NCBI GenBank assembly: GCA_973895155.1
Contig: OZ316892.1
Span: 2,669,223-2,733,222, forward strand
Origin: Marsupella aquatica
Taxonomy: Eukaryota; Plantae; Marchantiophyta
DNA length: 64,000 nt
Direction of reading: 5' to 3'
The translations under genes were made by a program, and so were the position numbers. Positions 31,077 through 64,000 of the stretch are shown piece after piece. Each line of letters opens with the position of its first letter. The first letter of the stretch is position 1. Under the pieces are notes generated by a model. It was not told where the DNA came from, did no database searches, and saw only the letters and a list, made by a program, of their open reading frames with translations.

Positions 31077-31078
31077 AG

Positions 31079-31090
31079 TGGTATCAGAGC
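31079..31090 (+). promoter_or_regulatory. Primer binding site for initiator tRNA-Met
   Basis: TGGTATCAGAGC. Confidence 0.93.
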
Positions 31091-42800: not shown

Positions 42801-43597
42801 CCAAGGTTAGACATCAATTTCCTAGCCTCGTACATATTTTTTGGAATTGAATTACCATCTGGTAACACATTTTGGCGCAGGAAGGTCAACAACTCTGTCA
42901 CAAATATATTGGGAACATTGTGATTGCCACAGATGTTCAACAACAACACGACAAAACCCAGCTTGGAGCAGTTCGACCCCTCGTAGATAGGAATGCAAGC
43001 TTCTTTGATGTGTTTTGGGCCCCCAAACACCCACTCCCTCTCTGCTGCACCTTCCCCAATGTCAAAGTTAGGTTCAGCTTGGCCGTCTCCAATGTGTGGC
43101 TACGGTTCATTGTCCTCTTCTGATTCCACTATGTCGTAAAAAGCATCAAGGTCTTCAAAAATCTCTTGAACCATTCTTGGGACATCCATCCCACCGTCCT
43201 CAGTGACTGCCTCTGCATCTCCATCTTGGTCATCCACGTTCTCATGTTGGACCCCAGGACCATCCTCTGCACAGTCTATGTCCTGCTCTACGTAGTCTCT
43301 ACGCCTAGCTATATTAGAATCCACAAAGTCAGCTCTCCACTCTTCATCAGAGGAGTCTTCTTCTGCTGGTACATTCCAAACCCTCCACTGAGGGTGCCTT
43401 TCATGCCGCAGCAGGTGAAGGTGCACAGTGTTCAAACTCAACGACTTGAATCCTTGGCACTGTGTGCATGGGCATCTCATCCTCCTACTCCTACCTTGGG
43501 CGGCCCGGGCTTGTTCACGCATCCACAATTTAGAATCATGATGCCTAATCCTAAATGGGTTGTGAAGAGGCAACCTTGGAGCCATCACTATACACAC
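39882..43597 (-). pseudogene. CACTA TnpD-like transposase (Transposase_21, DUF4218, DUF4216-type regions)
   Basis: RCPCTQC; IDACPDGCVLFR...CPHCG..RY; LRHFPLIPRLQRLF; DYPG; DVMHIEKN; MKTHDYHVLMQ; FPPAFFDVMTHL..H; RWMYSME; in-frame stops at 42131 and 41037. Confidence 0.93.
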
Positions 43598-43911
43598 GCA
43601 CTCAGCACCCTGTCATTTTATTATGCAAGTGAAAAATACACTTCCTGTTAAGGATTTCACCCCCGACTGTACTTGCCAAAATACGTAACGTTCCAAAAAA
43701 ACAAAAAAACAAAAAATATAGGTGCCTGAGTCATGTACCTATTCTCAAGTGAATGAGACAAAATTCCTAAATGTTTGAGGGTGTCAACTCCTCCGCTGTC
43801 CTCACATGTACTGCCTCTGCACGTACATCCATGACCATATCAGAGTCCAATCATGTATAGTCATAGACACAGGTGCCAGGTGCGAGACCGGTGTGAGATG
43901 TCCTCATCTTA

Positions 43912-44481
43912 CTACCACATCAAATACGGATACCAATCCTGTTGTCGATGCCACTCAGCCCTGAGGTACTCAAGCATGTACATTAAGTCATCAAGGTCTA
44001 AACCCTGCTCATGCCATGGTGGTCTTCGATCTGTACCTACAAGCAGTGGCAGCGGTGCCCTCCATGGTGCACATGTTGCTACCAAGTCCCTCCACTGGGT
44101 ACTAATTAGTCTATATTTGCAGATATCTTGTGCGCCAGACACCACAAGAACCCTCGGCCAGACATGTGTAAGAACTATATCATCTGCCAAATCAGGCAAC
44201 AAGGAACCACCTACAGCATCGTGCTTGTCTAACTCATCAGCTGAAAAGTAAATGTCCTCTTTGGACTGTGCATCCTCATTCACCACAGCATTCACAACAC
44301 ATCCAAGGTCTGCAAGCATTATCTCGGATGGAGCTACACTCTGTCTGGTTACCAATCCACACAAGTAAGCCCAAGCAGTAGCCATGCACGATGCAACCCG
44401 TAGGAGGACCCTACATAGGGCCTGACGGTCTAGAAGAGGCAGCATACCCACCAAAGTCTTCAGCCAAACAGAGCCCAGCAA
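43912..44481 (-). CDS. F-box-like ORF carried in the CACTA element
   Basis: SLLPDLADDIVLTHVWPRVL...KYRLISTQWRDLV fits the F-box pattern LP.LPDD....I..R....R.VS..W..L. Start uncertain. Confidence 0.5.
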   Translation of the reverse strand: MLGSVWLKTLVGMLPLLDRQALCRVLLRVASCMATAWAYLCGLVTRQSVAPSEIMLADLGCVVNAVVNEDAQSKEDIYFSADELDKHDAVGGSLLPDLADDIVLTHVWPRVLVVSGAQDICKYRLISTQWRDLVATCAPWRAPLPLLVGTDRRPPWHEQGLDLDDLMYMLEYLRAEWHRQQDWYPYLMW

Positions 44482-44621
44482 GTAGATTCACAGTCACACC
44501 CCACGCAGCAGGAAACAACAATCACTTCAACTGCGACCAACCATGACAAGATGAGTTAGTTCAAGGATCACATTTATTACAAAATTGGGATTTATACAAA
44601 AATATGAGGGACTCCTACTCC

Positions 44622-45143
44622 TCACTCTCTCCCACCTTTGCTAAGCATACATCTCCGCTGAATCTTGGAGGGCCAGGCCTCAAAAATATCAAAGTCCCAA
44701 GCATTCTGTCGCTTCCCTCTAGCTGCTGATTCCAGAAGCCAATCAGGGGAAAGCACCCAAAGATTGTTGTTCATGACAAAATCACGCACTATTGTCTTAA
44801 AGAATTTTCTGCATATTTTCATGTATGACATATCTACAACATGAGCGGAGGTTTCTGTTAGACTCTCCTCCACTGTCCCACCTAGCTCAACAACTATGGA
44901 CTTGTACAGTCTGCACTTAGTCTCCCCAATTCCTTCTTCTACAAATACCACACTGAACCCTTTCATAATGGTATTTCTCTCATTGCCATGCTCATTCAAT
45001 ATAGCATCTGCACGCATAGGATGGTGTCCTATGTTGACAACAGGTCCATATTGGACAGAAGCAAAGTTGGGTTTCTCTGCTGCTGCTTCATAGGCTTCCT
45101 TTTCAACCAAAGCCTCTGCAGTGGCCTCCTCACTCTCCCACAA
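44622..45143 (-). CDS. BRCT-domain exon carried in the CACTA element
   Basis: MKGFSVVF...KSIVVELGGTVEESLTETSAHVV...VLSPDWLLES...KRQNAWDF; probable splice acceptor near 45162. Confidence 0.65.
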   Translation of the reverse strand: MWESEEATAEALVEKEAYEAAAEKPNFASVQYGPVVNIGHHPMRADAILNEHGNERNTIMKGFSVVFVEEGIGETKCRLYKSIVVELGGTVEESLTETSAHVVDMSYMKICRKFFKTIVRDFVMNNNLWVLSPDWLLESAARGKRQNAWDFDIFEAWPSKIQRRCMLSKGGRE

Positions 45144-45201
45144 CTCATATTGCTCAGTACTCTGTACACACCTATGTTTAACAGAATTGGTCAGCCAAGA
45201 G

Positions 45202-48200
45202 TGTGGTGCGTCCCATGGCTCCCTAAACCCAAGAAACCCCCCAGCTCAAGCCGATTCCCGCAGGTTTCGTGCTTGGCGAGGCCGTTTCCGCGGCTTAGCG
45301 GCATGGGACGTTGCTAACCTTCTACTACTACTATTAACATTTTACACACATATACTGGACAGATCCTTCATCGGGTCATGAGATACGTAGCCGGCCTAAT
45401 ATAGGCCTTCCCCTATCTTCCCCTGTCTTCCCCTCCGTCTTGTTAGGTATGTTTGGATTCCGCCGCCGGAATGATCCCCAATAGGCTTGGTTAAGCCGCT
45501 AAGACCTCTCTCAGCTCGACACATCCAACTCTCACTCCCCTGCTTACTTTCCTTCCTTCTGTTGATGTGGGCACTCTTCACACAAGTTAATGCGACACAC
45601 AAATAGCAAAATGACTCATTCTGACTGAGTCATACCATGCACTTGCCATACAAACAGTACATCTCATACACAAGTTCTGCGAACTAAGCCGTGAGGCCAA
45701 CTCTATTCAGCTCTTAGGCATGAGGAAACATGAATATACACAAGGGTCACTGTATGACTAACCGAGAGCTTCTCGTACTACTTGATCCCAGCCCGGCTGG
45801 TGCAAACTAAAAACTTGCTAAAGAAGAGGCCCTGAGCTCCCCGCTGCCCAGGTACTTATCCTGGTAGTGGATCCGCCATTCTTTGCATCGTAAGCCTAAT
45901 CTACTTAACAGTAATCTACTTGCCCGAATCTACCTATGTACAGCAAGGCAGGAGCACAAGTGTTGCTCCTACCAGTGGGACCGCAATCCCACTAAGCTAA
46001 GTGTCAGGGCCGCTCCTGGTTCTGATCCTAATCCTAAACGTGGAGGTCCGTGCCCGCCCTGCCCACTCACGCCTCCTCCCTCCACGTCCGCCCTCCCTAA
46101 AAGGAACGGCGCCCTTGCACCGTCACGACACCGGTGGTGGATCCTCAATGGACGCCCCCAACACTTCCTCCTCAGCCACTGCCGTTGGCCCGCCTACTGA
46201 CAGATTACCTGCCCTTGACCGAGTCAACTCTCCATCGGCCTGACTGGGTCCACCTTCGGCTTCAGCCTCGACAACTCCAACGGCTTCGGCTTCAGCCACT
46301 CCCACGGCTTCGGCTTCAGCCAACCCAACGGCTTCGGCCTCAGCCAACCCCACAGCTTCGGCCTCCCCTTCCCCTAGGGTAGTTGGATCCTTAGCCGTGA
46401 CCCTGTCTGGGGTCGGTGCTGGGTCTACCTCCTTGATCACCACGGCCTGTGAAGTCGTATTACTCCTTGACCCTGAAGGTTTCCGCTTCTTCTTCGTTGG
46501 TGGCTCGGCAGCTGGTCCCTTCCCCTTCCCACTTACCTCCGGCACTGGTGCAGGTGGCGCGGCTTGTCCTTCGGCAATTACCACCCCTGGTAACTGGTTT
46601 GTCCCAACAGGAGATGGACCTGCTGCAGCTAAGCATTTAAATACTGCGGCTTGTTTCTTCAGCCGCTCTGTTTGGTTGTCGGCCCGCCGCTGTAGGTTCT
46701 CCATCTTCCTCGTGATTTCCTCCAACTCCTCTTGGGTTTCATCCAGGTCCTTACGTGCCCCCTCCAGCTCGTTTTTGGCCTCCTCCTGCTCCCTATGGGC
46801 TTCCTCCAATTCCTTCTTCAAGGTAGCCTTCTCCTCCTGGGTTGCTCTTAGCTCCTTGTCGAGCTCTGCAATGATGACAGACTCCATCTGGTTCATCTTG
46901 GCGTAAGTCTGTTCGAGCATCTCGTCCTTCTCCCTTAGGTCGGCCTTGAAGCTGGCCGTCAGGGACGCAAGCTCCTGCTGCAGCGCCATAATCCCTTGAT
47001 AGGATTTCCCTAACTCGACCTCCTTCTGCTCAAGGGCTCCGCGGATTTTCTCGAGCTCCCCTTTCAACGCCCATTCCTTTCTTTGGGTCTCCGCCATGGC
47101 CCGGCTGTTGGCTGTTATGTGGGCCTCCTCTGTATTCTTCAGCTCTTGCTTCCACTTTTCCCTTTCTTTGATCGTGTCGGCCAACTCTTCCTGCGTCTGA
47201 GTCAGTTTATCCTTGATATTCTGATTATCAGCCTGCGCGGCGTCCAACTGCCCCTGCATGATGTTCAGCTCATGTCGTTTAATCCGCAGTTCATCTTGGG
47301 CTTTCTTGGCCGCCCTTAGATCTTCAATCTCGGCTGCCATCCTCCTAAGCCGCCGAATGACCTCGTCCTTCTTGCTTCTCTCTAAAGCCACCGCTTCTTC
47401 TAATTGGTGCTTCTCCAACTGCTCCCTATGGAAAAAGGGTCCTACCTCCAACTCCTCTCCAAAGATGCCGAGCGCAAGTTCCCCACACATCTCACCATAT
47501 TCCATGGCTCTATTCTTAGCGTAGGTGGAGTAAGTAGAAGTGATCGGCATCGCCCATCGTGGCCTCTGCTCCCAAGCCGTCCTGCGGATCTCTTCAATCG
47601 TGGCTAGAGGTTTGCTTCCTTTTTCGGCTAGCCGCCTGATGTCCTCCGGCCAATCTCCTCCTGGTAAATCCTTTTCCTTAGCCAGGGCGGCCTCTTCCTC
47701 CTGCTTGATTCGCTCCTGAAATTCCTGCACCGTCTGTTTTATGCCGTCGAAGCTCGGGGGAGCAACATCTGGTGGGGGAGACTCAGGGCTACTCTGCTGG
47801 TTGGGGTCCCCTCGCACTACCCTTGGAAGTGTGGGGACAAACCGGCCACAGGTCCTTACTCCTGGAACGTGATGGTCCGACCCATAGCCGGAATTATCAT
47901 GGCTGCAGTCCTCCACTGCCTCCTCTACCTCTTGGATTTCCGGCTTCTCCCTCTCCTCTTCCTCGGTAGGAGCTTCAGGCAATTCTGCCTCAGATTCGGA
48001 GCTTGAGGTTCCCACGTACATTCGAACACCTGGCTTGGATTCCGGCCTGATTCTCTCCTTGTCTCCAGCAAAGGGGTTTTCTCTCGTGAGCCGGTGTAGG
48101 CCTACCTCTGTAGTAGTGTCCTGCATTGTTGCCGTTGCCATTGTTGTTGCCGATGCCGATTTCTTTTCTTTCTCCAGTAGTTTCAGCAGACTCTGCATGC

Positions 48201-49873
48201 CTGGTTGCTGCATCGGCAAGTCTTCCTTCCTGGGCCTAAACACCTGCTCGATCGTAGGACTAACAGGTGGTTGAGGCTTCTCAGCCAACGGCCTCGGCGT
48301 TGGAGCTTCCTCGGGTGCCCTTACCTGCAGGGGAAGTACCGGGGCAAAAGTCTGACCTCTGGCATACCGGCACAACAACGGCATGTGATAGCCAAGCCGC
48401 GACACGCTCCCCATGCCGATTACCTGCTGCTCCTCCTTTAAGATCTTCTTCAATTGGTTGAGGAGGTACCCGTTGTAGTCCCGGCTTGGGTCTGGCCTTT
48501 CTGCCAGATAGACCTGTGCCTTGCCGATCTCTGCCCTCGGCAAGTTACAATGCATGGTCACCCGCAAGAAGTCGATCATCTCTCCTATGTGCGGGTTGGT
48601 GCAGGTGTTCCGGAAGAAGCCATTCTTCGTTGATGGCCCGGGGAACGACCGGAACTCCTTGTCAGGCAAGGTCTTCCTGGTATCAACTTTGGTCTTATTG
48701 CCCATCGGCAAGCCAAACACTTCGGCAATCACCTTGGGAGTAAGATAGAAATCCTTCCCATATATCCTCGTGCAATTGGTCTCGGGTTCCCATGACCCCA
48801 CGAATTCTAATAGGTCTGACTCCGGTACCTCCGGCTTCAGCCATGGTAATCTTACAAAGGCCTCCAAGCCGGATCCGGCCATGAAGCCTTGGTACTTCTT
48901 GGTCTGCATGGCCGTAAAGCATGCATCCTCCTCCCGTGCAAAATGTAGTTGCACCTCCACCGGTAGGGTTGCCGCCCAGCCCTTCCAGGTGTCATCCCTG
49001 GTTGGAATGGCCTTGATGGGATCGACCTCCTCTTCTTCGGCTTCTCCTTGCCTCCTGCTCTGCTGCTCGGCTGGCTTCTTTGGTGCCGCCGACCTCGTTC
49101 TTTTTGCCGGGGTGGCTTCATCGTTGACGGCTCCCTTCCTCTTCATCTCTGCTGCCGTGGAGGTTTCTCCTAGCACCGTTGCCTGGGTCCACCTTTCCGT
49201 GCTACCCTTTAATTCCCAGTGTATGTCGTTGCAGTTCTTGATGGCCTCTCGGATGCCGACGACGCTGTCTTTGCAAAACAGAAGATCGTCGAGTTGATTG
49301 GAAGTAGGCGTCCACAGGAACTCGTCCTTGATGAGTTCGCCTCCTAAGAAAGCCGTCTTCTGCAGCTCCCACAATCGAGCGAGCTCCTGCCGTTCTCGAG
49401 CTGCCCTTTCTGACTCCTCGTCCTCGTAAGTCTTGATGTACTCAGTTGCCCGTTCGAACAGGCATCCCCAGAAATGTGCCGCTTGATTGACATTGCTCAT
49501 ACCCTCCTTAGGTTGATCGTCGGTATCTACTCTCTCCCCGAGTGCTTGCCTAAGCAGCTGACAGTAGTTGGCCTCCCGTAGTCGTCTGCCTAGTTCGTGC
49601 TCGCAAATGAGCCACCATCTCCTGCAAGCGCTCCTTACCCCTCTCCTCTGCCGGTCCTTCTTCCCGTTGATCCTTCCTAGCCACCGACGCTTAACGCGCG
49701 CTAACCCTAATCGGGTTTTCACCCTCAGCCTTACCTCCAGCCTCTGCCCGGGTTCCATGGTTGCCCCTAATTGTTTATATTTTCCTTGTTTTGTCACTAT
49801 ACTAAGGTGTTCCTAGGGTGCCTTCCTGCTTTACCCACTTAACCGGCCGAGTGATTCCTGTCTAGGCATCACA
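45202..49873 (-). mobile_element. Element C: 4672 bp TGT...ACA insertion with 5 bp TSD and one intact long ORF
   Basis: AAGAG (45197-45201) | TGTGGTGC...GCATCACA | AAGAG (49874-49878); 7 of 8 bp terminal inverted match. Confidence 0.9.
46123..49797 (-). CDS. Element C protein (up to 1224 aa; real start may be the ATG at 49500): plant-mobile/Athila-ORF-like domain, acidic linker, long coiled coil, NLS-like KKKRK, AEAEAVG repeats
   Basis: Uninterrupted 3.67 kb ORF; GLEAFVRLPW...EFV...TRIYGKDFYLTPKVIAEVFGLP; homologous to the 56009-57436 ORF. Confidence 0.88.
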   Translation of the reverse strand: MTKQGKYKQLGATMEPGQRLEVRLRVKTRLGLARVKRRWLGRINGKKDRQRRGVRSACRRWWLICEHELGRRLREANYCQLLRQALGERVDTDDQPKEGMSNVNQAAHFWGCLFERATEYIKTYEDEESERAARERQELARLWELQKTAFLGGELIKDEFLWTPTSNQLDDLLFCKDSVVGIREAIKNCNDIHWELKGSTERWTQATVLGETSTAAEMKRKGAVNDEATPAKRTRSAAPKKPAEQQSRRQGEAEEEEVDPIKAIPTRDDTWKGWAATLPVEVQLHFAREEDACFTAMQTKKYQGFMAGSGLEAFVRLPWLKPEVPESDLLEFVGSWEPETNCTRIYGKDFYLTPKVIAEVFGLPMGNKTKVDTRKTLPDKEFRSFPGPSTKNGFFRNTCTNPHIGEMIDFLRVTMHCNLPRAEIGKAQVYLAERPDPSRDYNGYLLNQLKKILKEEQQVIGMGSVSRLGYHMPLLCRYARGQTFAPVLPLQVRAPEEAPTPRPLAEKPQPPVSPTIEQVFRPRKEDLPMQQPGMQSLLKLLEKEKKSASATTMATATMQDTTTEVGLHRLTRENPFAGDKERIRPESKPGVRMYVGTSSSESEAELPEAPTEEEEREKPEIQEVEEAVEDCSHDNSGYGSDHHVPGVRTCGRFVPTLPRVVRGDPNQQSSPESPPPDVAPPSFDGIKQTVQEFQERIKQEEEAALAKEKDLPGGDWPEDIRRLAEKGSKPLATIEEIRRTAWEQRPRWAMPITSTYSTYAKNRAMEYGEMCGELALGIFGEELEVGPFFHREQLEKHQLEEAVALERSKKDEVIRRLRRMAAEIEDLRAAKKAQDELRIKRHELNIMQGQLDAAQADNQNIKDKLTQTQEELADTIKEREKWKQELKNTEEAHITANSRAMAETQRKEWALKGELEKIRGALEQKEVELGKSYQGIMALQQELASLTASFKADLREKDEMLEQTYAKMNQMESVIIAELDKELRATQEEKATLKKELEEAHREQEEAKNELEGARKDLDETQEELEEITRKMENLQRRADNQTERLKKQAAVFKCLAAAGPSPVGTNQLPGVVIAEGQAAPPAPVPEVSGKGKGPAAEPPTKKKRKPSGSRSNTTSQAVVIKEVDPAPTPDRVTAKDPTTLGEGEAEAVGLAEAEAVGLAEAEAVGVAEAEAVGVVEAEAEGGPSQADGELTRSRAGNLSVGGPTAVAEEEVLGASIEDPPPVS

Positions 49874-52800
49874 AAGAGACTTCAACTACTTTTAGACCTT
49901 GGTTGGTAATGGCAGAATCAATGAAGGACCATGACCACTTGTTCATCACATCCAGCCATGTCCCCGCAACAACATGTGTAGTCTATGGAGTGATGTCCTT
50001 GACTTCAGTCCCATGGAACTCTGAGAATCATTTTTGTACGATTGGCCAACTCACTTGGGTGAACCCATAGTGGCCAGGAATCAAAATGGCTTTGATTCCA
50101 GCCAACAGAGGCGGGTGGTCAACCTTTGTACGTTTCCTAGAGGCCATGTCCACACGGGCCACCTAATCACTGCAGACCGGAAGATAATGCGTTCACCTGA
50201 TAATCGGAGGGCCCTTAAAATGCTGCGTTTATAACTTGGTCCAGTCCAGTCGTCTGGTGAGTCTCTGCTCCGATTCCAAACGGAAGAAATATTGGGACAA
50301 ACGTACTAGACACCTGCAAGCATGCACCTCATAGTTTGAATATGTGCCTTCACAATATTGAAGGTGACAAGTGCAATTGTTTTGTGATGCCACATACAGA
50401 TGTTGTAAATGGGCAGACATTCAATGAGAATACAAAATGTTGGTACACTTTAAGGGAATTCTCGCAAATTAAATAGCCTTGTAACTTATATGCTCATAAT
50501 GAGAAGTCCTGATTTAATTTAAGCAGTGTCATGTAAGTCGTGATCAAAATGATTGCAGAGTTAAAAAAGTTCCTAGAAGGCTTAAGGGGAGTTTTTGAAG
50601 GCATGTACCCAGGAACAAGTAATGAACTTAGGGTACTTGTTGCCTAAGCATCCTCTAACTCTTGAGGAAATGAGCATGACCAGGGAATTCTCTGAGAAAT
50701 AGAAGTGCACAGGGAAAATGAAATTGGCTCATTCAGCTGCGCAAGATGGACCATTGCAGCATACTTGGACAGTTGTTCCGCAATACATAAAATACCCTGA
50801 CTTACATGCAATTGATACAATCTGCTTTTGTTGGCTGTCCTACAGCTCATGGCAGTGCCGTTGGGATAGGGTAAGTGAATATTGCCATAGCTGAAGCACA
50901 TTGAGCTTGCAGCAACAAGTGAAGGAGCATGGCCAAAAGCAGAAAAGACAGACAGGTTTTACAAGAAGAAACTAACAACCGCCAATCTACTCAAATCCGC
51001 TGCATAGATCAAACCCTCCGAACTACACAGCCCTCCTTTGAAAACAATCCAATGTGCTTTGGCTGGTGGATGACAAGGACTGGGAGAAGAGGAAACGTCT
51101 GCACAATCAATCCAAATGACGGGACACAGAGACCAGGCACAGAGAGGATTTGTGCTTAGACAAAAACCACAAATTGTAGCATGGGCGCCATAGCATTCTA
51201 GACAAAGCACAAAACATAGAATCTATGAATCTATGACTCATGGACTAACAAAATGATTGGGTAGCATGGCAAAAGGAAAGACAAATTTCAAAATGACAAC
51301 ATGGCCCGTTTCCGCCATTCATTTGACGTTGCTAGGTGTCCGTAAGATGACTGACCCACAGACAATCCCGACAACCTCATCTGACAGACTGCTTTTCTAG
51401 TGTGAAGAAATACATGATTACAAGCAACACCACGCCTCATCCAAGCAGGGAATTGAAAACATAACCATGTCATTCCTGTATTGGACAGTGTCCTCTACCA
51501 TTGCACTGCATAGTTGTTATTCCATGTTGGTTGTCAACAGTTTGTTGGCTTGCCACAGCCTAGATAGAACAATAAAATACTGTACATGAATACAACAAGA
51601 AAAATCTGCATACAGCGATGGCCCGGTCACTTGAGGAAAAAACAAAACTAAGAAGGCAAGCACACAGGCAACCGAGAAAAAAAGCTAGTGGCGCCTCGCG
51701 GAGAATCCAGAATGGTAATGCCCTCGCCCAGAAGCTTGGGAAACAAAAGAGAAAAAAGCAAAAACGAGCTACCGACCACCGTCTTGACCAGGCCCGCCAC
51801 AAGGTATGGCTGGAGGCTATGGTCCCCCCCTTAGTAAAGAAAAGGATGCAGGTTGGAGCACGGGGCACAAGGCATGTTTGGATCCAGGAGGAGCAAAACA
51901 GTAATGTCAAGCAGGAAGTGTGGAGAGACCAATCAGTAAACAAAAATAGGGGAGAACAAACATACATCAGCAGCAGGAAACGAGAAAGTTGATTTAGGAG
52001 GGATTGTAGGGAGAGAGCTTTTGGTGGGCTCGGCTGCGCGTGAAATATCGGGAGATAGATGCGCGAGAGAGTGAGGAGGGTGGCAAGCGGAAGACGGGTT
52101 GGGACTGGACCCTTGGTGCCGGTGGGTAATATATGGGGTTTCAGCAGACTTGGGGCCAGTTTGAGGAGGATTAAGAAGCGCGCACCCCACGTTCTTGGGT
52201 GGTGGTTGGGTGGGGTTTTGTTTGATTGAAGAAGAAATCACCATTCTCTTCTAGAAGAAAGAAAATCGCAGGAAATAGTGGACGGGAGAACAAGGCATGT
52301 AATAGAGACAGTGCGCAGCTCAGCTCCGAGGTCACACTTTACGATGCACAGGGGGTCCTTGGTTGCAAGTAGGAGAAGGACTGAATCATTGTGGCTGCTC
52401 TTCTCTACTATTGAAGCACCCGGCTGGCAGCTCTGCAAACACTGATCGTAGCTACAATCTCTACACCGTTGATTGAAGAGCAACTGCAGCATAGTAAGGA
52501 GCTCCCACAGCCTCCCTCTTCAAAGCTCGGTTGACCTAGCTCTACGATCGACGGAGCATGGGCGCCAGACAAAGCACAAACTGTACCATGGAGCTGGAGA
52601 AAAACACAGAGTAATTGAAGCCTAACAATACCCTTCTCAGCTCCTGATCGAATGAGGAAAAACACATTACAAGACACATTGCAGGCAATAGGATTTTAAC
52701 AATGAAATCTTGCCTGTGCTGACAGAATACCTGCTTACAGCCACGCGTTGCTCATCCTCCCACAGTTCGGTGGCACACTATCCAGATGGCATGACGCATG

Positions 52801-53929
52801 CCTTAACTTATGACGATTTGCGCAGCTCAAATCAAGTAGGTTGTCCCCACAAAAAGACAGAGGACAACAAAGAAAAGCAATGTAGCCGTGATGTCTTACC
52901 AGCCCTGACAACGGGAGCTTCAAAGGCGGTGCACTGTGGCTGAAATGGCAGCACGTTGCTCGAACACTAAAGCAACACAAAACTTGGACTCTCACCTTAT
53001 GCAACTCCTGGCTTGTATTCAGCTAGCGTTGGCCCACTCTAAGCTCCTGCGCCGCTCCGACTGCCAGTTGTTCTGTAGACGGTCTGTATCCTCCCTAACC
53101 GCAGCTCCTCCCCGCCCCCAGCTCGTCACCCGCGTCTTCTCCCCAATTTTTGGTGAGCTCCTCCTCGACCACAGCACCCTAAACTGCTTTGCCTAGCCTC
53201 TGATGGCCTTCACGTTGTTACCGATTATCGCTCCCCACAAAGTCCACAATCCATAAACTAGGCAGATAGCGCACCCGTAGAACAGATGCAACCCGCATGC
53301 AGCTTCACCAGCTCAATGGCAGCTCGACAGCTTAAGGGTGCAGCAAAAAGGCGTTGAATAGGTTGTCTCACCTCACCCTTCGAGAGCCGGTCATTGCAGC
53401 ATCCCTAAACTCCCGATCCCTCTTCTTGGATTCCACAGAGCCGACCACAAGAAAATGGGAACACTAAACCTCACTGTAGAGACGTTCCCACCAAGATTAC
53501 ACGGAAAACCTTGCTCCGATCCCTAAGCTCCTGATCCCATCGAGAGAACACGATAAAACCTTTCTCCAATCCCTAAACTCCCGATCCCACCAAGAGAACA
53601 CAATAAACCTTGCTCCGCAAGTTGGGAATGTGGCGGGATCCCTAAACACATCAACAACCTGCTAAGTGTAAGCAAAGTTGCATAACCGGCTTGTTCCCTT
53701 CCAACGGTCGCGCGACTCGGGTGTCCAAACGGTACTGCAAGCGGTACAGGCCCCTAGCTTGGGATACCCTTACCAAAGTCACTGGTGTTGCCGACATGGT
53801 AACGGCAAGATTATCCTGACCCTCCATTAACCCCCTCCATTCACTCAAGTGTTGTGAGTGACAACTTAGTGTAGTGTCGCTAAACAAATACTTTGGCCTT
53901 AGCAAATATCTGTGGTGATCGAACTTCAT

Positions 53930-54690
53930 TAAACCAAACCTCTTTTGGTCACAAATAAGGCCATTTAATGAGTGATGCCCCTTGTCATCACCCTCTTAAT
54001 TTATGCAATTACCCCTCCTGAACATAAGTGAACATTGTCCAAATTGCCTACCCTCATGAATAATTTGTCAATTATCTTTCCCGACATATATGATGTCAAT
54101 GGACATGATGGGGAACATGATGTCAATGGACATGATGCCAACGATCCAATGGTTCCTAAACCCCCATCCCCTTAACATGCAACCCCCGACCCTTGACATC
54201 AAACCCCCCCTAAACCCCCTTTAGTGAAAACCCAGCCACCCCCTAGCCTTGACATATAAACCCCCTAAATGTCTTCACAACTCGACTGTGGCCAGACTAT
54301 CTTTGCAATGCCAGGGGCCATTTTTAGAGTGCATGCCGCTTGCAAGCTCAGGCTCTCAAGATCCTCCCAAGGCAGCAAACAAGTTAGGGTCCCTAAACAT
54401 GTTCCTTTACCCTAAACCATTGCGTCACTATTTCAATCGAGTGTTCTTCGCCTGGACAACCCCCTAACCCTAAACCCACACCCCCTTGAGACCGGTACAA
54501 ATCTACCTTTGTGCATCTCGGCCTTTTATTGATGGAGTTAGTAATCGATCCCTCCGTAGTCCACCCTCCATGAACCTCACTCCAAAACCTTTTTGGTCAC
54601 AAATAAGGCCATTTATTGACTTATGCCCCTTGCTATCACCCTCTTTACAGAATTACCCCTCCTCAACATAAGTGAACATTACCCATGATG
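53930..54690. repeat. Two diverged copies of a ~110 bp block in the CACTA subterminal region
   Basis: ttttggtcacaaataaggccattta...aattacccctcct.aacataagtgaacatt at ~53943 and ~54591. Confidence 0.8.
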
Positions 54691-55297
54691 TGCTAGACTA
54701 TTCACCGTTCACAAAGTAGCAAGGTTACTTCTCATAGTCTTTTAGTGAACCATAAAACACTAATAGTCTTTTGTAGTCTTCAACAAAACCGGTGCAATGG
54801 GTGCGAGTCGTTTCAAGTATGGAAAAAGGACTTAGTGGGCTTAGTCCTATAAGGTATGGTACTTCCCCAGAGGTATTGGCATCAGTTGCTGGTTTTAGTG
54901 GAGTGGTCACTTGGCCAGGTGATTTGTTGGAGGGTAACCTGTGACGCCGCCGGTACGGCGGTTAATGAGTGATTCAGTCTAACTGCGCTCGGCACGCGCG
55001 TTAGGTGGGTCTTAGGCCGCTATTATTAGCATAACGACAGTATTTAGGTAATCATTAGGGGTAGGACATCATTAGGCAATAAGGGGGACTTCAGGTTTGG
55101 GCTGGCGGCGGGTCGCTATTCGCACACCCGGGTTACGAGCGTGGAGGGGCCCCTCCCTCGGGTCCGTATAACGAACTTAAGGAAGCGGCCACTGATGCAC
55201 GCTGACTCAGACCGGCGGAGTGGCCGGTACACCACAAGCGTGAGCGGTTCAACCTATGGGCGTCGAGGAGACGTCGGGGATCGACAAGCCCTCAAAG

Positions 55298-55304
55298 TAT
55301 AAAA
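55298..55304 (+). promoter_or_regulatory. TATA box of element B
   Basis: TATAAAAGGGG about 100 bp upstream of the ATG at 55406, followed by a CT-rich leader. Confidence 0.6.
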
Positions 55305-55405
55305 GGGGAGCCAACCCTTTGTAGTGCACCAGTCCATCAGTCCGCGCGCCAGCTTCAACCCCAGCTCTCTCGTTCTCTCTAGGTCGCCACTACTATCTCC
55401 TCTGA

Positions 55406-58041
55406 ATGTCGCACACGATCCTCTCCAGCTCGGCCATTCAATTCTGGACGCAGTTCCTATCTACCGGAAGGCACTTGGCCGATTCATTGAAACACGCCAA
55501 CCCGCGCCGATACGAGATCGAACGCGAATACGAGAGAGCCATTCGCCTAGCAGGACGACACCACTACGTCCTTAACTTTGACTACCCGTCTCAGAGCGAG
55601 CTTTACCGACCAGCTGAGGTATCTGGGTACTTCTTCAACGGAGACAAATATATCGGGTTCTGGGAAGCATTGCTTCGGCTTCCGGACGAGGTCTTCAATA
55701 TCCCGGGTACAATCGACCTGCAGCGACATCACTTCGACCACATCCCTGCCCAGGTTCGGGCTGTCATTAACGGCGAGTCCAGTACCAACCGTTCGACAAG
55801 GGCGTCCGCACTCGCTTCGGAGAACTTCTACCAGCACCTGCAGAGCTTCATGGGAACTCGGCCATCAACCAACATGACCAACTCAGCCGGGCCCGTACCC
55901 GTACCCGTACCCGTGCCCATGCAACCCCAGCCTTAGCCTCAGCCGCAGCCTAGCCAAACCCCACCACCTATCACCCAGCCAGCACAGGTACGCTCCATCA
56001 TCAACGCTGTGGATCTTAGCGATGACGACGAGGCTACCCCACCCTTGACCAGGCGGCCCAGAGGAACAAGCGCTCGGGGGGCCGACACTATATCGTCCCC
56101 ACCCCCTGCTCTGACCCCAGGAGCGGCCCCAGCAGACAACATGGTGACCGTGGCCGCCCCGGGCCCGTTACCAACCGCAGTGGCACTCCCCAGGCCCGAT
56201 CGGGAGGATGGGGAAGTATCACCTTCCCCGAGTCAGTCACGGGGAAAGAAGAGGAAGGAATCCGCCACTGCATCCGGGTTACCGTTGGCCACGGTAGCCG
56301 TGGCCAAGGTGACAATGCATCGCATGGGGGAAAACGTTCACAGCAACATCCTCCATCCCAAGCATGCGGTGTACCTGAAGACTCAGGGATTTGAGCACCT
56401 CGCCTCTCTCCCCTGGAACACTTGCAGGTACTACGGGGAGGACATGACAGAATTCGTCAAGAATTATGACGACGTACGTCAACAGACTCGGCTGCGGGGA
56501 AGGAATATGTCCCTCACAGAAGAACGGCTCAAGATGATCTTTGGGTTACCCGAAGGTGACCATCGAGTCGAATCACGGGCTCCCGGGGGCAAGGGGGCCA
56601 AGTACCAATCTTCAAGTTTTCCCTCAGAGGGATCAGTAGACAATGGGTTCGTGATGAGGACCTGCCTCATGCCCGAGATAGCTGAGCGGCTGGAGTTCCA
56701 GAGGTACGCTCTCCACATGATGGAACCCCGGGGGGAGATCTCCGCCGCCCAGGTTATCCAGGTCGAGAACTATCGACCTAGGAAATGGGCGTCGTACTTC
56801 GCTAAGAAATTCCATGAAGAGATGGAGCGGCGAAGGAAGACGCTGTACATTGGCGGGAAGGCGTATTTTGCTAGCCACATCGAAATCATTCTTGAGTGGT
56901 ACGCCCGGTTTGATCGACGAACCCTTCCCCGCATCAACGTTACAAAGCTGGTCCCAACTAGGTGGGTTTTTCCGGCATTGGAGAGACGGCCCCAACCCGA
57001 GGCCCGAAGTCCAGTGGACACGCCAGCTTCACCCACCCCACCTCCACAAATAGCTGCAATCGTAACCGAGGAGGCGCCGGAGGGGTCGGTCATCGCAACC
57101 GTTGATGCGACCCAACTAGCCGGGCTAAGTACAGAAGTTGGTACGGCAAAGGTCTTACCCGAACCCGGGTCTCCCAAGGACCCGCCGGTGGCAATTCCGG
57201 AGAACCGAACATCGCTGCAGGAGGACACTCCAGCCCCTTCCAACGTTATGTCCCCAGGGCTGGACGTCACTGCCCCGGCCCCTGCGCGTGTTGATGTCTG
57301 CCCGTGCCCAAATCCGGACAGGCACAACTTGGACCACCCGGAACTCTTCGTACAGGGTACGTTTCTGAACGGGCTTCTGGGAGATTTCTCTCATCAAATT
57401 GCCCGGGATACGGGGAGTTCATGGCCCGGAAGGTAGCCTGTTTCTTCAATCAGGAGTTGGTTGCCGCCGTAAAGGCAGGTCGGGCCCAGTCGGAGGCCCT
57501 TCAGAGGATAGAGCGGTACCGGGTGGAGTCCGTGTACCTAAAGAACGAAGTGGCGGCTCAAGAGGCTGAGCTTCTGCAACTACGACCCAAGGTTGCAGCC
57601 GCCGATGAGTTGTTAGCAAAGGCGTACGCTCTTACCGCCCTAGCCAAACAGGCCAAAGCTGGGAACGAGGCCGAGATTACACGACTCCGGAACCAGATTG
57701 ACAGTTTGAAGAAACAAGCTGTCACCTGGCAGAAAGACCTGGAGGAGGCCGAGGAGCGAGCCCAGCGGGACGCGATGGAGATAGCCACGCTGCAGGCCGA
57801 GATGGCGCGGCTCCAAACCGAGGCCGAGAAGCAGGACCAGCTGGCGGGTAAACTGATGAGCGACGCCCAGCAGCTGGAGGAGGCATGTCAGGAGGCAGCA
57901 GAGGAGACGGACGCGGTGAGGCGAGAGAACGAATCTCTGCTGGACCAGGTCCAGCTCCTCAAAGCGGACAATGACAGGCTTTGAAGGCAGCGGGATGGCC
58001 GTTCCCATTTGGGCGGCTCTGGCAAGCGTGCCAGGCATTAG
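55406..58041 (+). pseudogene. Element B gene, ~875 aa, homologue of the element C protein
   Basis: ORFs 55406-55936 and 56009-57436 share a frame (TAG inside a QP repeat); frameshift near 57405 into 57304-57984; TGA at 57982 is followed by RQRDG...GKRARH*. Confidence 0.83.
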
Positions 58042-59107
58042 CGGCGGAGTAGGAATAGATTAGAATTAGGATTGGCTTAGTCAGGCTCTTGGGACAGGCA
58101 CCTGCCTTAGGTACAGCAGCGCTGCCCTGCTGTCCAGCCTGCGTAAATTAGGATCTTCTAATAAGACACAGCCGTTTTCCGGCCTGACTGTCAGCTTAGT
58201 TAGGACCTTAGTCAGCGAATCTTCGGCGAGAGGACACCCCGTTCCTCGGCTCTTAGTATTTAGTGCACCCCTCGGTAGAGGCAGGGGGGGTTTTAGTTTT
58301 AGAGTCGGACATCCGCGGGACATGCGGGGAGTCCCAACCTCTGGGAATGACAGAGTACCAAGGGGAGGGGGTAGGACTAAGCTTGCCGGGCAAGTGCGGA
58401 GCCGGGCTCCGTTGTAGTGTGCACCCTCAGCCTTGAACCTGTGCATTCCAGGGCTGTCGTGTCAACTAAGTGTACGCATATGTTCCCTTTGTAGTAAAAT
58501 CCTTTCCCATCATTTTTCCTTCGTGTAAATCGAGATTGTATGCATGTGTGCGCATATGTGTGTGGGTTTCTCGTATATGGGTGGCAGCGCCGGGCCGAAC
58601 GCACTACCCGAGACGTGCACAGGGTGCAGCCTGCGGGTAAGTAGTTGCGAGCACGGGTTGAGGACCTGTATCATCGAATCCGGATCGAAGGCGGACAGCA
58701 CGAAGGCTTAGAAGCCCTTAAGCCGGGGTCGATCCTGCTATCGACTAAGGTACGTTCCGGCGGCGGAACACAAACCATACCTAGGAGGTGTCCGTATTTA
58801 GCAGTATGCGCACTTAGCGCTAGTTTACGAGAATAAGGTGCATTACGTGCTTCCCTTCCTGCCCAAACCCTCAGATTTACGAGGGATGTGCCCGTCTAAG
58901 CTGAAGTCTGAGTTAAGGCCGAAGCCTACGACGTGACATAACCTCTTAGCCGTGGATTCTCCAGTCTATGAAGAGGTAGAGGAGGTCTTTAGTTTGGCGG
59001 CAGTGGTACCCTCCTTGTTGGATGTTCCACTTTGGAGTTCAAGTGGAGTGTTGAGGCAGAAGGATGATCATTTGATATCATAGGCTTGGAGTACACCCTT
59101 TGTACCT

Positions 59108-60008
59108 GTGGAGGTAGAGGAGGCTCCAAGACGAGCTCCTACTGGTGGTCCAATGGGGTTGTCTCCTTTGGATACAACACCCATTGTTTGGGAGTATCCA
59201 CTAGAGGGTATTTGTGTGTTGGACCTCTTTGGTGGGATTAGCACTGGTTTGGCTGCAGTGTTGCAGGCTGGGATACCTGTGAGGAAGTATTTGTATGTGG
59301 AGAGAGATGAGACCGCGAGGAGGGTTTCATCACGACATCTTGCATTGTTGATGCAAAGATACCCTGAGTTGTTACAGTCCGCAATTCGGGGGTATCAACG
59401 GAGTTTGCCATCAGACATTTCATTGTTGGGGGTGCAAGACCTTGAGAGAGTTGGCCCTATTGATTTGGTGATTGCTGGATGGCCATGTCAGGGACATACT
59501 TGGGCTGGTCATGGTGGAGGGTTATGTGACCCTCGTTCTCATATGTTTTGGGAGATGTTGCGGGTGTTGCGTCATCTTCAAGTGCATCAGGCACGTGCTC
59601 CAGCTTACATTCTGGAGAATGTCCCTTTGTTGGGTACGTGATACTAGATCTCATGTGATCACGGTTGCACATGAGGTACGGTCATGGATTGGGCCAGCTG
59701 TTTTGTTGGATGTAGCGAGGGTGGGCTCGCGTGCACATCTTCCACGGTTGTGGTGGACGAACTTGTTACCCAGGGAGCTTTTGAGGCGCGCCTATGATGC
59801 AATCCAGCGACCACTATCTCTCACCGTGGATAGTATTTTGGATGGTGGACGACGTTCTCAGGTGGTGAGAGCAGTGGATAGGTCACCCATGGCAATAGTG
59901 AACCTTGTGGGGCAGCCTAGAATGGCTTTCCTACATTTGTGAGTTTTCCCTCGTCACATGCCTATAGGGATGGTGGTCCTGGGCTTGTATGGGATTCTTG
60001 TAGCAAGG
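59108..60008 (+). pseudogene. C5 cytosine DNA methyltransferase domain, DNMT3-like, within Gypsy pol
   Basis: Motif I VLDLFGGISTG, II YVERD, IV IDLVIAGWPCQG, GLCDPRSHMFWEMLRVL, VI YILENVP, VIII DVARVGSRAHLPRLWWTNL. Frameshifts near 59635 and 59930; motifs IX-X lost at 60009. Confidence 0.92.
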
Positions 60009-60529
60009 TGATAAAGAGATAAATGACTATTTACTCCTTAACAACTCGATTTCGTTCCCGTTAGGAGTGGATAAGATCGAAAAAACTGAATTAACACAAT
60101 TTGAGAAGTTTACACCAACATTCTTAGGTTGAAGAGATTTCTAATGATCTCCTTAACATAAGTGTTTAACCACAAACTCAAGTGGGTAATCCTTAGGATT
60201 CACAGTGCAATAATAAAGACTAGAATTAACAAAGATTGAAACTAGAGGGAGAGTAGATAGGAGTTTTCAAAGTGCAAGGGAATTGAATTTCTGACCATCA
60301 CCACTCTTTCAATAAGGATTATGGCCTAATTTAAGATTCAGAAATCAACATTTTCTATGCTTTTTGATTTCTCGTAGCAACTCTTCTCCATCTCTTGAAT
60401 TTAGAAGACAACAATGTAAATCAACCCGGGACACTTTTCTGGTCTAGCTTAAGACGGTACTAGGATACTCGAATTGGTTTACTTCTCCTACAATCCTTAA
60501 GATTGCTTGTTTGAGTTTTTTCTCCTACA
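60009..60529. mobile_element. 521 bp solo-LTR-like insertion without TSD, at a deletion in pol
   Basis: AT-rich, TGATAA...CCTACA ends; flanks CAAGG and ACATT differ. DNMT stops on the left and RT resumes mid-domain on the right. Confidence 0.6.
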
Positions 60530-61460
60530 ACATTTTGGGGAGTCAACTCATATGGCAAGGATTGTTTGTATCAGTGGCGGTTCTTACCCTTTGGGTTGAA
60601 GAATGCACCTGCCGAGTTTCAGAGAGTGCTGGACAGGATCCTAGCAGGATTGGATTTTATTCGGTGTTACATTGATGATATCTTGGTGTTCAGTGATACT
60701 ATGGAGGAGCACCAACAACATTTCCAGATTGTGTTTGAGCGATTGAAAGCTCATGGTCTACGTTTACATCCAGGAAAGTGTAGGTTCTTCCATGAGGATG
60801 TTGAGTACTTGGGTCATGTGATCTACCCAAGTGGTTTGGGGGTCCAACAGGCAAAGGTTGAGGCTATTGCACGTATCCCTCGGCCGACAGATGTGAGTAG
60901 AGTTCGGGCATTCATGGGATTGGCGAACTACTATCGGCGATATGTGAAGGGATTTAGTGCTATAGCAAAGCCTTTGAACAAGTTGTTGAAGTCTGATCAG
61001 GAGTGGCAGTGGGGAGATGACCAGGAGAGAGCTTTTATGGAGCTCAAGGCCAAGTTGGTGTATGCGCCTATCTTGAGGAGACCTATCAGGGGTCGCCCAT
61101 TTCAACTGCACACTGATTGGAGTATGTTGGGGATTGGAGCGGTGTTGACACAACATGATGATGAGAACAAGGAGTTTGTGGTGGCCTATGCAAGTCGTTC
61201 AAACAATGCAGCAGAATCAAGCTATGGTTCGTACGAGGGAGAGTGCTTGGCAGCAGTGTGGGCTATGGCACACTTCAGGTGTTACTTGTTTGGCACAAAG
61301 TTACCCTTGTTACTGATCACCAACCGCTCAAGTGGTTGATGGAGTCTGATAAGCTTACAGGAAAGCTTGCACGGTGGGCTCTTATCTTACAGGAGTATGA
61401 CTTTCAGGTGGTACATAGACCTGGAGTTACCAACCTTGATGCTGATGGGTTGAGTAGGAA
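60530..61460 (+). pseudogene. pol: Reverse transcriptase (C-terminal half) and RNase H
   Basis: TFWG...YQWRFLPFGLKNAPAEFQR, YIDDILVFS, LHTDWS, EGECLAAVWA, TDHQPLKWL, ADGLSR; frameshift near 61300. Confidence 0.96.
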
Positions 61461-61859
61461 CCCATGTCCTAGTCAGGAGGATGATACTGGAGCTAGATGG
61501 CATGGAGAGGTTGATGAGGAGATGGTGCCAGGATGGCATGCATCTGCCTTTTTGTGTTTGTTGGGTGTGAACTCTAGTATGGAGGATCACCTTACACCTT
61601 CCTCTAGTCAGAGGGTAGATGGCCAGCCTGCAGATCCGGAGGTTGGAGATGGTGCTACAGATCAGCGTGATATTCATGATGATGCGTTGGTGTTAGAGTT
61701 CCTACGGACCAGTAGGGTGCCAGGCATAGTGAGTGCCAAGGAGCGAAACCGTGTTCTCCAACGGGCTAGGAGGTACCGATTGGAGGGAACACATGTTCTC
61801 CGTGTGTGGGAGGATGGTAGAGTACGAGTGGTACCCCATATAGCTCAGAGAGGCGCATT

Positions 61860-62960
61860 GTGCGACATGCTCATGAGGAGTTGGGACATTTTGGAGTAAA
61901 GCGTACGTATAGCTTACTTCTTGGTCAATATTGGTGGTGTGGCATGCACACTCAGGTGAAACAGTTGGTGTCACATTGTATGGTTTGCGATCGGGTGAGG
62001 GCATCGTTCAATGCCCCTACACCACAGTTACACTCCTTATCTATTATGGAGTTGGGTTACCGTTGGAGTTTGGACTTTGCAGGACCATTACTGTTAACTA
62101 GGCGGCATCATCGGTATGTGTTGATGATGGTGGAGCACTTTTCTAAGTGGATTGAGTTGGTGGCATTGCCTGACAAGGCAAGTGAGGGAACGGCGTATGC
62201 ATTTCTTGATAGAGTGCTTAGTCATTTTGGTGCACCAGCGGAGGTGTTGACCGACTAGGGTACTGAGTTTCAAGGTGAGTTTCAGGTCTTGTGTGACAAG
62301 GCGTTGATTGATCACTGGACCACATCTCGAGATCATCCAGAGGCGGATGGTTTGGCAGAGCGTGTTGTTCAGACGGTGAAGAGGGGATTGTGCAAGTATG
62401 GCCTACAGAAGGGGCATCTTGGAGATTGGGACATTCAGTTGCCATGGTTAGCCATGGGGTATAGATTCAGTCGTCAAGCATCCTTGGCTTCCTTCTCACC
62501 TTATTTTCTATTGTACGGTTGAGACCCAGACTTGCCCACAGCAATTTGTCAAGATTCTAGTGAGGTGGTGAACCTTGATGACTCGGAGGTGTGGCTGAGG
62601 GTGTGTTCTCAAAGGGCACAACTCTTTTAGAGAGTTATGCCAGCAGCCTTTGAGAACCTTGCCATTGCTCAACACAGAGATACGTTGCGTTATGCAACCA
62701 TCCGGGGTGGAGGTTATTGACCATCCATTCGTAGGTTCCATGTGGGGGACTGTGTCTATTTGCAGTAGACTGCACCGACAACGTTGGATGTGACGGTAGG
62801 ACGCACTATCCTACGTGTGAGAGAGGTGTTGGCTTCTGGAGTTCTCATGTTGGAGGGTCGTGATGGTGTTGTTTGGAAGGACCATGTGCGTAATTGTGCG
62901 CCATGTCACCTCCCAAACATGGATGGTACAGTGGACCCCAGCTTGGCAGTGATACGTGCT
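61860..62960 (+). pseudogene. pol: Gypsy integrase (HHCC zinc finger, DDE core, C-terminal region)
   Basis: HEELGHFG...CMVC; WSLDFAGP; LTD*GTEF; DGLAERVVQTVK; SPYFLLYG; several stops. Confidence 0.95.
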
Positions 62961-62967
62961 AGCTTGA

Positions 62968-63110
62968 GGTGCATGTTGTGTGGGTCTGCTAGTGAAGCAG
63001 CCCGTATGTTGGTTTGTGATAGGTGTTCTAGGGGTTGGCATATGTCATGCTTAACTCCACCTGTTGATGTTGTGCCTACTGGACGGTGGGTTTGTCCTCG
63101 GTGTACTTAG
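62968..63110 (+). pseudogene. PHD finger (C4HC3) at the extreme C-terminus of pol
   Basis: CMLCGSASEAARMLVCDRCSRGWHMSCLTPPVDVVPTGRWVCPRCT*. Confidence 0.93.
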
Positions 63111-64000
63111 GAGGTGGATGACTTGATCTTCACATGGTATGGATTGCAGATGGGCGATTAACGATGGGGCAACATAGCATCCGGCCTTCTGATCCGTGCA
63201 CCCACGAAGGTGTATAGCATGTAGTAGATGGATAGGGCTACCTAGGAGTTAGAGGGACCTAACCGCCAGTTAGGGGGGCGAGTTGCGGTACACTGTCTTG
63301 TATTTATGTATGCTCTTGTCCATGTTATGCATGTATGTGAGTATGGCATGACCAGCGATGTATGTTGTATGACGATGTGGATTCGCACGACATCACAAGC
63401 TATGGAGCTTGTTCACATCTGAATTGGGTTTCTCTTTGTGACGTCCAACTTGGTGGAAGGAACATGAAGTGTTACGGCTCAACGGTTTACTCGCGGCGAG
63501 GCGGTCATTTTGAGCCAGGGATTGGCACTTGACACGGAGTGAGTGTGACGCGGCGGAAGTTTTTACTCTGCTGGAGCTGCAGACTGTGCTGGTGCAATTC
63601 GGAAACTTTTCCCGTCGGCGGCGTTCACTTTTCTCGTGAGAAACAGCGGGCCCTAATTAGGTGAGTAATCGACATTTATCCTTTTATGGTTATTTTTTTC
63701 ACTTAAGGGGGTCTAAAGGGGAAGCCTTGTGTGTGTATTTGGGTGTGTATACACACACCCAATCTCCCCCCTCCTCCCCGACACCCCGTTACTCCTCGAT
63801 TGTGTTTTTCCCCCCCTCCCCTCCCGCGCACTCCCGTTCTTTTAGGCGCAGCGGCGCCTCACGCAGCGCCGGCCGACACTATTAGCGTGACCGGGTGCAC
63901 CCCGTCCCGCCATCGCCCTCCCACACTCAACTCGCACCTCGCACCTCACGCTGCGGCCCTTGCGACCCCCGTCGCCCTCCCTCCGACCGGCCCATACACT

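Follow-up and report, generated by a model that had tools for sequence, protein, structure and literature searches.

A dead Gypsy-type retrotransposon of Marsupella aquatica and its bryophyte family, with a DNMT3-like methyltransferase on the gag side and split, permuted repeats

The stretch of Marsupella aquatica DNA analysed here (contig OZ316892.1 of assembly GCA_973895155.1, positions 2,669,223 to 2,733,222 of the forward strand; 64,000 nucleotides, hereafter the window) carries cytosine methyltransferase motifs next to the remains of a Gypsy retrotransposon, and it raises the question of whether the enzyme belongs to the element and, if so, what it modifies. In identity as well as in anatomy, window positions 31492-63392 are almost certainly a single dead, heavily interrupted insertion of a bryophyte Gypsy-type retrotransposon family. 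In our reading, to which we give a probability of roughly 0.55, this family consists of a first open reading frame (ORF1) coding for gag, protease and a DNMT3-like DNA methyltransferase (DNMT), followed by a second one (ORF2) coding for reverse transcriptase (RT), RNase H, integrase and a PHD finger; in active copies the enzyme would methylate the element's own complementary DNA (cDNA), which would integrate from a circle.

A first examination based on the letters of the DNA (the sequence-only reading) had placed the element at 54860..63110, with gag near 54860. This span proved too short, the actual element being delimited by a 4-bp duplication (Table 1), and gag lies at 33275 to about 35250, 20 kb upstream and separated from pol by nested insertions. 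In a public sequencing run, X1, the sequence past 31491 reads on into a segment matching 63397 onward, that is, the empty site. On the strength of the ends at 31492 and 63392, the TCAC duplication and this empty site, gag and pol are parts of one insertion within an older long terminal repeat (LTR) element. That older element occupies 30733-31491 and 63393-63680, has an LTR at 30733-31077 and a tRNA-Met primer site, and is very deep in the runs; the LTR and primer site at 30733-31090, considered as those of the DNMT element, were rejected since they belong to this host element. Self-comparison of the window revealed no LTR pair for the DNMT element.

The coding domains were recognized through relatives and Pfam. 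The gag region gave no Pfam match, and a tblastn comparison with the Marchantia relative P0011 showed 59% identity over 588 columns. P0011 matches the window in gag (33530-35255), in a linker (54846-54938) and in the DNMT (from 58937), while its residues 570-753, which include the protease, have no match in the window, so that the protease was deleted from this copy. The DNMT matched PF00145 (E 1e-8, 35.5 bits, cut-off 22), and further matches were obtained to RVT_1 (1.6e-24), RT_RNaseH_2 (2.5e-30), Integrase_H2C2 (4.3e-16), PHD (1e-11) and, slightly below the cut-off, rve (2.9e-7). Methyltransferase motifs I, II, IV, VI and VIII were all found on the + strand where the sequence-only reading had located them. 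It was also right that the linker runs in frame once the nested element B is removed, as the frames agree and contigs of two of the four runs join 54934 to 58939, and that the copy is dead: its frame is broken near 59635, 59930, 61300 and 61852, stops occur at 59081 and at several places in the integrase, motif VIII has a leucine where one arginine should be, and motifs IX-X are deleted together with the RT N-terminus, 955 nt having been swapped for 529 unrelated nt.

Whether the DNMT is a component of the element was answered by its relatives. A search of longer proteins with the DNMT piece gave 52 homologues, and of those with a named source most are 54-79% identical and come from Marchantia polymorpha, Sphagnum and Calypogeia; a profile search added M. 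paleacea, Riccia sorocarpa and S. tenellum among the best 120 of 201 rows. The kind of retrotransposon that carries a DNMT thus extends to land plants, as had been proposed, with relatives in seven named bryophyte species (M. polymorpha, M. paleacea, R. sorocarpa, Calypogeia fissa and three Sphagnum species). A single metagenome scan, in which loci were retrieved by their DNMT, provided a set of 76 sister loci. These show the order gag-protease-DNMT-RT-RNase H-integrase-PHD at constant spacing, and the DNMT precedes RT in all 37 loci that span the end of the former and the start of the latter. The order protease-RT-RNase H-integrase with a DDE integrase is therefore present in the family, the protease being kept in the sisters and deleted in the window. 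Contigs of run X4 that cross DNMT, RT, RNase H and integrase at near-equal depth (4900-5220) and are free of the window copy's frame breaks lend weak independent support to the DNMT as a family component. In an RT tree (56 sequences without reference clades; FastTree, midpoint-rooted) the RT of the window clusters with Marchantia and the sister loci with support 1.0. A DNMT tree built in the same manner holds 112 domains, incomplete ones (that of the window included) and near-duplicate cluster members being excluded; Klebsormidium proteins and host DNMT3 are absent from both trees, and neither was found among the matches listed in three protein searches (52, 68, and the best 120 of 201). A scan of viral contigs gave no match. 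A literature search, which covered neither figures, Repbase nor subscription papers, found no published description of the family in bryophytes and no mention of six Marchantia gene identifiers.

That a dead element captured a fragment of a host DNMT3 on one occasion has a negligible probability in the light of these data. Nothing was found in its favour, and it is refuted by the sister loci, since the DNMT occupies the same position in many copies and in the seven named species; moreover, the domain is intronless, no DUF3444 was found with it, and it is only 22-24% identical to animal DNMT3 versus 70-80% within the family. As a separate observation, a second DNMT-RT element, strongly decayed and distant (its DNMT is 37% identical), is located next to a family copy at L023:2000-4600 (-), from which it follows that these hosts have more than one DNMT-bearing family.

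The position of the DNMT relative to pol is defined by a stop codon. In 27 of 27 loci with modal spacing, TAG or TAA is found at the same codon about 70 residues past the DNMT, followed by CAA-CCC-ATG; when shifted loci are counted, an in-frame stop separates DNMT and RT in 36 of the 37 spanning loci, and the sole exception has a deletion. The 29 loci with an in-frame stop represent 22 groups at 97% identity, and RT follows downstream of the stop in the same frame as the DNMT. Natural gag-protease-DNMT proteins of 1250-1440 aa (Marchantia gene models, Calypogeia, metagenomes, P0354) terminate in the same region. Because this in-frame stop is conserved, the DNMT closes the gag-protease ORF and stands outside pol. 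A single ORF running from gag through protease, DNMT, RT, RNase H and integrase to PHD, as had been expected, was consequently not borne out; of the proposal that the methyltransferase is part of pol and not a passenger, the latter half holds, given a conserved family trait, and the former gives way to the stop. The DNMT would be joined to pol only by read-through of the stop, which is likely, the alternative being a restart at the ATG. The TAG-CAA context is similar to that of known leaky stops.

This arrangement also bears on the possibility that the DNMT, brought along with the integrase and PHD finger, does its work once integration is over, either at the insertion site or on genomic copies already present, and thereby reduces the damage to the host or to the element's own family. 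The PHD finger, whose nearest solved counterparts include those of CHD4, PHF12, KMT2C, DPF3, KDM5B and PHF21A, is similar to readers of the histone H3 tail, and both insertion-site chromatin and self-limitation are raised as options by de Mendoza et al. (2018, PMC5890265). On the other hand, the DNMT lies in the gag ORF and is split from the integrase by the stop and by protease sites, and we consider such a role improbable.

As to the type of enzyme, the intact domains of relatives were used. With P0001, which is 83% identical to the window piece, the best match by sequence among solved structures was DNMT3A (E 6e-12), followed by DNMT3B/C, DRM and bacterial enzymes, with DNMT2 far lower; DNMT1 was not among the 49 solved-structure matches. 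A predicted model of P0009 (pTM 0.52, with long low-confidence parts) matched the DNMT3A catalytic domain with E 1.5e-15, a TM score of 0.80 on the target and 24% identity, and a search of the ESM Atlas returned generic C5 methyltransferase clusters only. The proposed DNMT3-like identity is thus upheld, DNMT3A ranking first by sequence and by fold, and these rankings of intact relatives indicate that the enzyme is closer to DNMT3 than to DNMT1, DNMT2, DRM or the bacterial enzymes. Motifs I-VIII are unrearranged in the window, with the catalytic PC and ENV, and relatives have the full set I-X. Of 70 loci, 65 retain the catalytic cysteine, and of 67 loci, 61 retain the glutamate of motif VI; the S-adenosylmethionine-binding FxG, the catalytic PC and ENV persist in about nine dead sisters out of ten. 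Median dN/dS values for the window against the loci, a comparison between dead copies, were 0.22 for the DNMT (57 loci, range 0.16-0.36), 0.14 for RT (29 loci), 0.23 for RNase H (24 loci) and 0.14 for integrase (18 loci). The conservation of motif residues together with the dN/dS of 0.22 argues that the DNMT was maintained by selection while the family was active, and intact copies probably encode an active DNA methyltransferase.

A different function has nevertheless to be weighed, namely that the domain serves the particle as a structural module or by binding nucleic acid, or that it methylates the element's RNA, and not DNA. Its Gag-level position would suit a structural role, many algal relatives have EC in place of PC in motif IV, and the closest tested enzyme, that of KnitGypsy-Dnmt3 from Klebsormidium nitens, was inactive on DNA in yeast, a result called inconclusive by its authors (PMC5890265). 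This explanation is nonetheless a doubtful one, given the retention of FxG, PC and ENV in the dead sisters and the fact that the solved structures closest to the domain are those of DNA methyltransferases, DNMT2 ranking much lower. The same source reports that related retrotransposon DNMT3s methylate CG in yeast.

The ends of the element are unusual. In the four loci that hold both ends, two repeats, A and B, are arranged as A-coding-B-A-B; the 3' B-A-B is found in 7 loci (6 insertions), and B alone in 7 loci and in the window. All 17 intact 5' ends lack a B ahead of A, and the layout is thus not that of an ordinary direct LTR pair. Both forms have TG...CA termini and 4-bp duplications, which match at L021, L024/L043, L062, L067 and the window, and with one mismatch at L048. 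At the A2|B2 junction, identical in 6 of 7 long-form loci, the base immediately preceding the primer site is linked to where the purine tract ends. The B1|A2 junction reads CA-NN-TG. The 11-nt self-complement between A and the post-A site was reached by 2 of 2000 shuffles, and in the 9 of 14 copies that were folded from the chosen start the primer pairs with the primer site. With the primer site behind A and the purine tract ahead of B, RT should produce an LTR equal to B+A, and the simplest reading would be that a two-LTR circle was opened at the internal CA-NN-TG site. We lean slightly towards integration of the cDNA by such a circle route.

The repeats could also be accounted for by a scheme of the DIRS/PAT kind in which no ligated circle is formed: the RNA would span A1-B2, the B1-A2 junction would template both ends of a linear cDNA, and the integrase would insert it normally. 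The layout is that of DIRS elements (A-coding-B-A-B), an identical A2|B2 junction is easily explained if it is inherited, and retroviral DDE integrases act on linear DNA (PMC11054761). Yet the primer site, behind A1, and the purine tract, in front of B1, stand precisely where a B+A LTR predicts them and the junction drops both exactly; in addition, because the TATA-like box and self-primer lie in the middle of A, the RNA would omit the start of A. We hold this scheme to be possible and rather unlikely. As an element, the window copy is not of the DIRS/PAT type, which is defined by a tyrosine recombinase; an rve plus H2C2 integrase is present instead.

Among described systems, the closest by description is KnitGypsy-Dnmt3 (de Mendoza et al. 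2018, PMC5890265). Like the bryophyte family it has Gypsy domains, an intronless, unrearranged Dnmt3-type DNMT and DIRS-like repeats (seen here in 7 sister loci, the window copy being a short form), and its DNMT is under purifying selection, with Ka/Ks below 0.2 as compared with the median of 0.22 here. It differs in that its DNMT is placed in the Pol ORF, whereas here it precedes a conserved stop in the gag-protease ORF, and in that its host is a freshwater alga and ours are land plants. The target duplication, primer site, junction, PHD finger and domain order of KnitGypsy-Dnmt3 are not given in the text consulted. As the comparison is one of descriptions and not of the Klebsormidium sequence, we would say that the bryophyte family works like KnitGypsy-Dnmt3 and do not file it as a member. 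SymbioDIRS-Dnmt3 of Symbiodinium (PMC5890265) shares a retrotransposon-borne Dnmt3 and A-coding-B-A-B repeats; it methylates CG de novo in yeast, and cDNA methylation has been proposed for it. Unlike the family described here, with its DDE integrase, TG...CA ends and 4-bp duplications, it has a tyrosine recombinase and its DNMT lies in Pol.

The Tcn1 and Tf1/Sushi chromoviruses (Neumann et al. 2019, PMC6317226) resemble the family as Gypsy elements of mosses with predicted self-priming and no tRNA site, and differ by their chromodomain and ordinary paired LTRs. The word methyltransferase is absent from that paper, whose survey would miss a split-repeat layout because it required two similar LTRs. 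The host enzymes PpDNMT3a/b (Yaari et al. 2019, PMC6453930) share an unrearranged DNMT3-type catalytic domain and a bryophyte origin. They differ in carrying DUF3444, which is given there for the host DNMT3 of non-flowering plants, and in genomic CHH methylation, while the domain of the element lies in a retrotransposon ORF without DUF3444.

Similar domains were also seen elsewhere. A large group of Gypsy-PHD polyproteins (P0086, P0125, P0150, P0228, P0256 and others) has a similar DNMT between RNase H and integrase, one such RNase H-DNMT-integrase polyprotein coming from the chlorophyte Chromochloris zofingiensis, and in both trees this group is separated, at moderate support, from the one that has the DNMT between protease and RT. 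Proteins with a Dam domain also carry related DNMT domains, as do Mesostigma, Haematococcus and Closterium Gypsy and Copia proteins; in many of them EC replaces PC in motif IV. Because related domains are found in algal Gypsy elements at this second position, the kind is much wider than was apparent in 2018 (PMC5890265).

The life cycle that we favor, at the probability given above, would run as follows. The DNMT would be made at the Gag level, packaged into particles and freed by the protease, and pol would be produced through TAG-CAA read-through or by a restart at the ATG two codons downstream. The RNA would begin inside A and prime itself on the post-A site as in Tf1/Tcn1 elements, a geometry that is seen in the sequence while its use is supposed; plus strands would initiate at the purine tract before B, so that the RT-made LTR would be B+A. 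The linear ends would be ligated into a two-LTR circle, in which the integrase would open the internal CA-NN-TG between B and A, giving A-coding-B-A-B plus the 4-bp duplication. If both internal sites were cut, if the circle had one LTR, or if B-B recombination took place later, the A-coding-B form of the window would result, a form that could not replicate. The PHD finger would tether integration to histone H3 tails. By analogy, the element's own cDNA would be, at slightly better than even odds, the main substrate of the DNMT, and because the enzyme would methylate this cDNA, new copies would arrive pre-marked. The fully specified version, with a DDE integrase opening a ligated two-LTR circle in mid-LTR, a packaged Gag-fused DNMT3-like enzyme methylating that circle before insertion, and an ancient green-plant Gypsy lineage, alive in bryophytes, as its bearer, is tentative and less likely than not.

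Several observations weigh against this reading. The sister loci were picked by their DNMT and therefore cannot reveal sisters that lack it, the two-ORF layout is demonstrated in sisters only, the window copy having lost the region of the stop, and the distant relatives P0098 and P0263 have one ORF. The motif VIII/IX arginines are retained in only 40 of 62, 47 of 61 and 39 of 56 loci, losses that are mostly those predicted by CpG decay, and the inactivity of the KnitGypsy enzyme in yeast has to be added. With regard to priming, an exact complement of at least 8 nt is found in 7 of 14 A copies, and the start of the self-primer was picked by the analyst. Integration through the two-LTR junction was proposed for retroviruses and later abandoned in favor of linear DNA (PMC11054761). 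Finally, a signature of self-methylation was sought in the sequence and only host-type CG/CHG decay was seen: mutation decay among 20 sister copies was 0.21 at CG, 0.25 at CHG and 0.08 at CHH, which the host MET1/CMT explains (PMC6453930), and the depletion of CpG in the element (observed/expected ratio, o/e, 0.39-0.47) is no stronger than that of the neighbouring CACTA transposon (0.30).

Since 2018 the question of what retrotransposon-borne DNMTs do has been held back by known hosts that are hard to handle. Marchantia polymorpha is a genetic model, and its copies make it possible to test cDNA methylation, read-through and the integration intermediate. Retroviral-type integrases follow a linear-substrate rule, to which integration from a circle, if true, would be an exception. 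More surprising than a land-plant Gypsy DNMT, which extends an oddity already published, are the position on the Gag side and the permuted repeats. Many Marchantia and Sphagnum gene models labelled as DNA methyltransferase or hypothetical are these elements, which affects counts of plant DNMTs, and because the repeats are split the family is overlooked by LTR-pair finders.

Table 1. Positions of the DNMT element, its parts and the insertions nested in it (window coordinates)
Feature	Positions	Strand	Remarks
Left target-site duplication TCAC	31488..31491	+	Empty site: loose end in run X1
Repeat A, element 5' end	31492..31855	+	Starts TATCATGACC (sisters TGTCATGACC); 74-75% identity to sister-locus A
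TATA-like box inside repeat A	31659	+	Putative R-U5 also within A
Putative transcript 5' end / self-primer	31688..31698	+	About 30 nt past TATA-like box; 11-nt perfect complement of post-A sequence; start inferred
Putative primer-binding site	31856..31866	+	Not tRNA-like; immediately 3' of A
gag part of ORF1	33275..35247	+	Capsid-like region, two CCHC knuckles, RGG tract; stops and frame break; tblastn P0011, P0354
Insertion like a miniature inverted-repeat transposable element (MITE)	35248..35584	.	8-bp duplication GTGTCAGA (35240, 35585)
CACTA (EnSpm) transposon with further insertions	35608..54861	-	CACTAGTAG at 35608; DUF4218
Protease-DNMT linker, piece 1	54862..54939	+	87-94% DNA identity to sister loci in rows shown; matches in 66/76 loci
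Element B	54940..58938	+	TG...CA; 5-bp duplication TAACC at 54935 and 58939; unrelated high-copy repeat
Linker piece 2 and DNMT3-like C5 methyltransferase	58944..60001	+	Motifs I-VIII (59216-59765), part of target-recognition region
Motif I VLDLFGG	59216-59236	+	
Motif II YVERDE	59294-59311	+	
Motif IV IAGWPCQ	59471-59491	+	
Motif VI ILENVP	59609-59626	+	
Motif VIII DVARVGSRAHLPRLWWTNL	59709-59765	+	Frame next to that of motifs I, II, IV, VI
Unrelated replacement, 529 nt	60002..60530	.	Stands for about 955 nt of sister L024: DNMT motifs IX-X, ORF1 stop region, RT N-terminus
RT C-terminal half and RNase H	60531..61460	+	YIDD at 60668
DDE integrase with stops	61821..62760	+	H2C2 finger; D in SLDFAG 62067, D in VLTD 62244, E before GLAERVV 62349
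C-terminal PHD finger	62964..63110	+	
Polypurine tract	63270..63282	+	Immediately 5' of repeat B
Repeat B, element 3' end	63282..63392	+	Ends GCACGACA; 77% identical to L024 B; no second A-B unit after
Right target-site duplication TCAC	63393..63396	+	Matches left copy

Of the nested insertions, the CACTA transposon has no mirror end of CACTAGTAG within the window; its right terminus was lost along with about 600 nt of the DNMT element, protease included, and a contig of run X2 reads on at 54860 into the missing terminus. A BRCT-domain frame lies within the CACTA insertion at 44625-45245 (-). Element B had no DNA match in the 76 sister loci. It is a 4-kb unit without internal repeat and without RT, deeply covered in all four runs, with ORFs that encode 176, 499 and 229 aa, the second of which is 27% identical to a 1229-aa ORF at 46126-49812; element B is possibly a giant solo LTR carrying an extra ORF.

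Elsewhere in the window, an NSD-like PHD frame is present at its start (130-807, -), and at 4427-6562 a 407-408-bp unit occurs 5-6 times in tandem. An amidohydrolase frame at 17918-19066 (-) has 383 uninterrupted codons, matches PF04909 and shows no CpG depletion (o/e 0.99).

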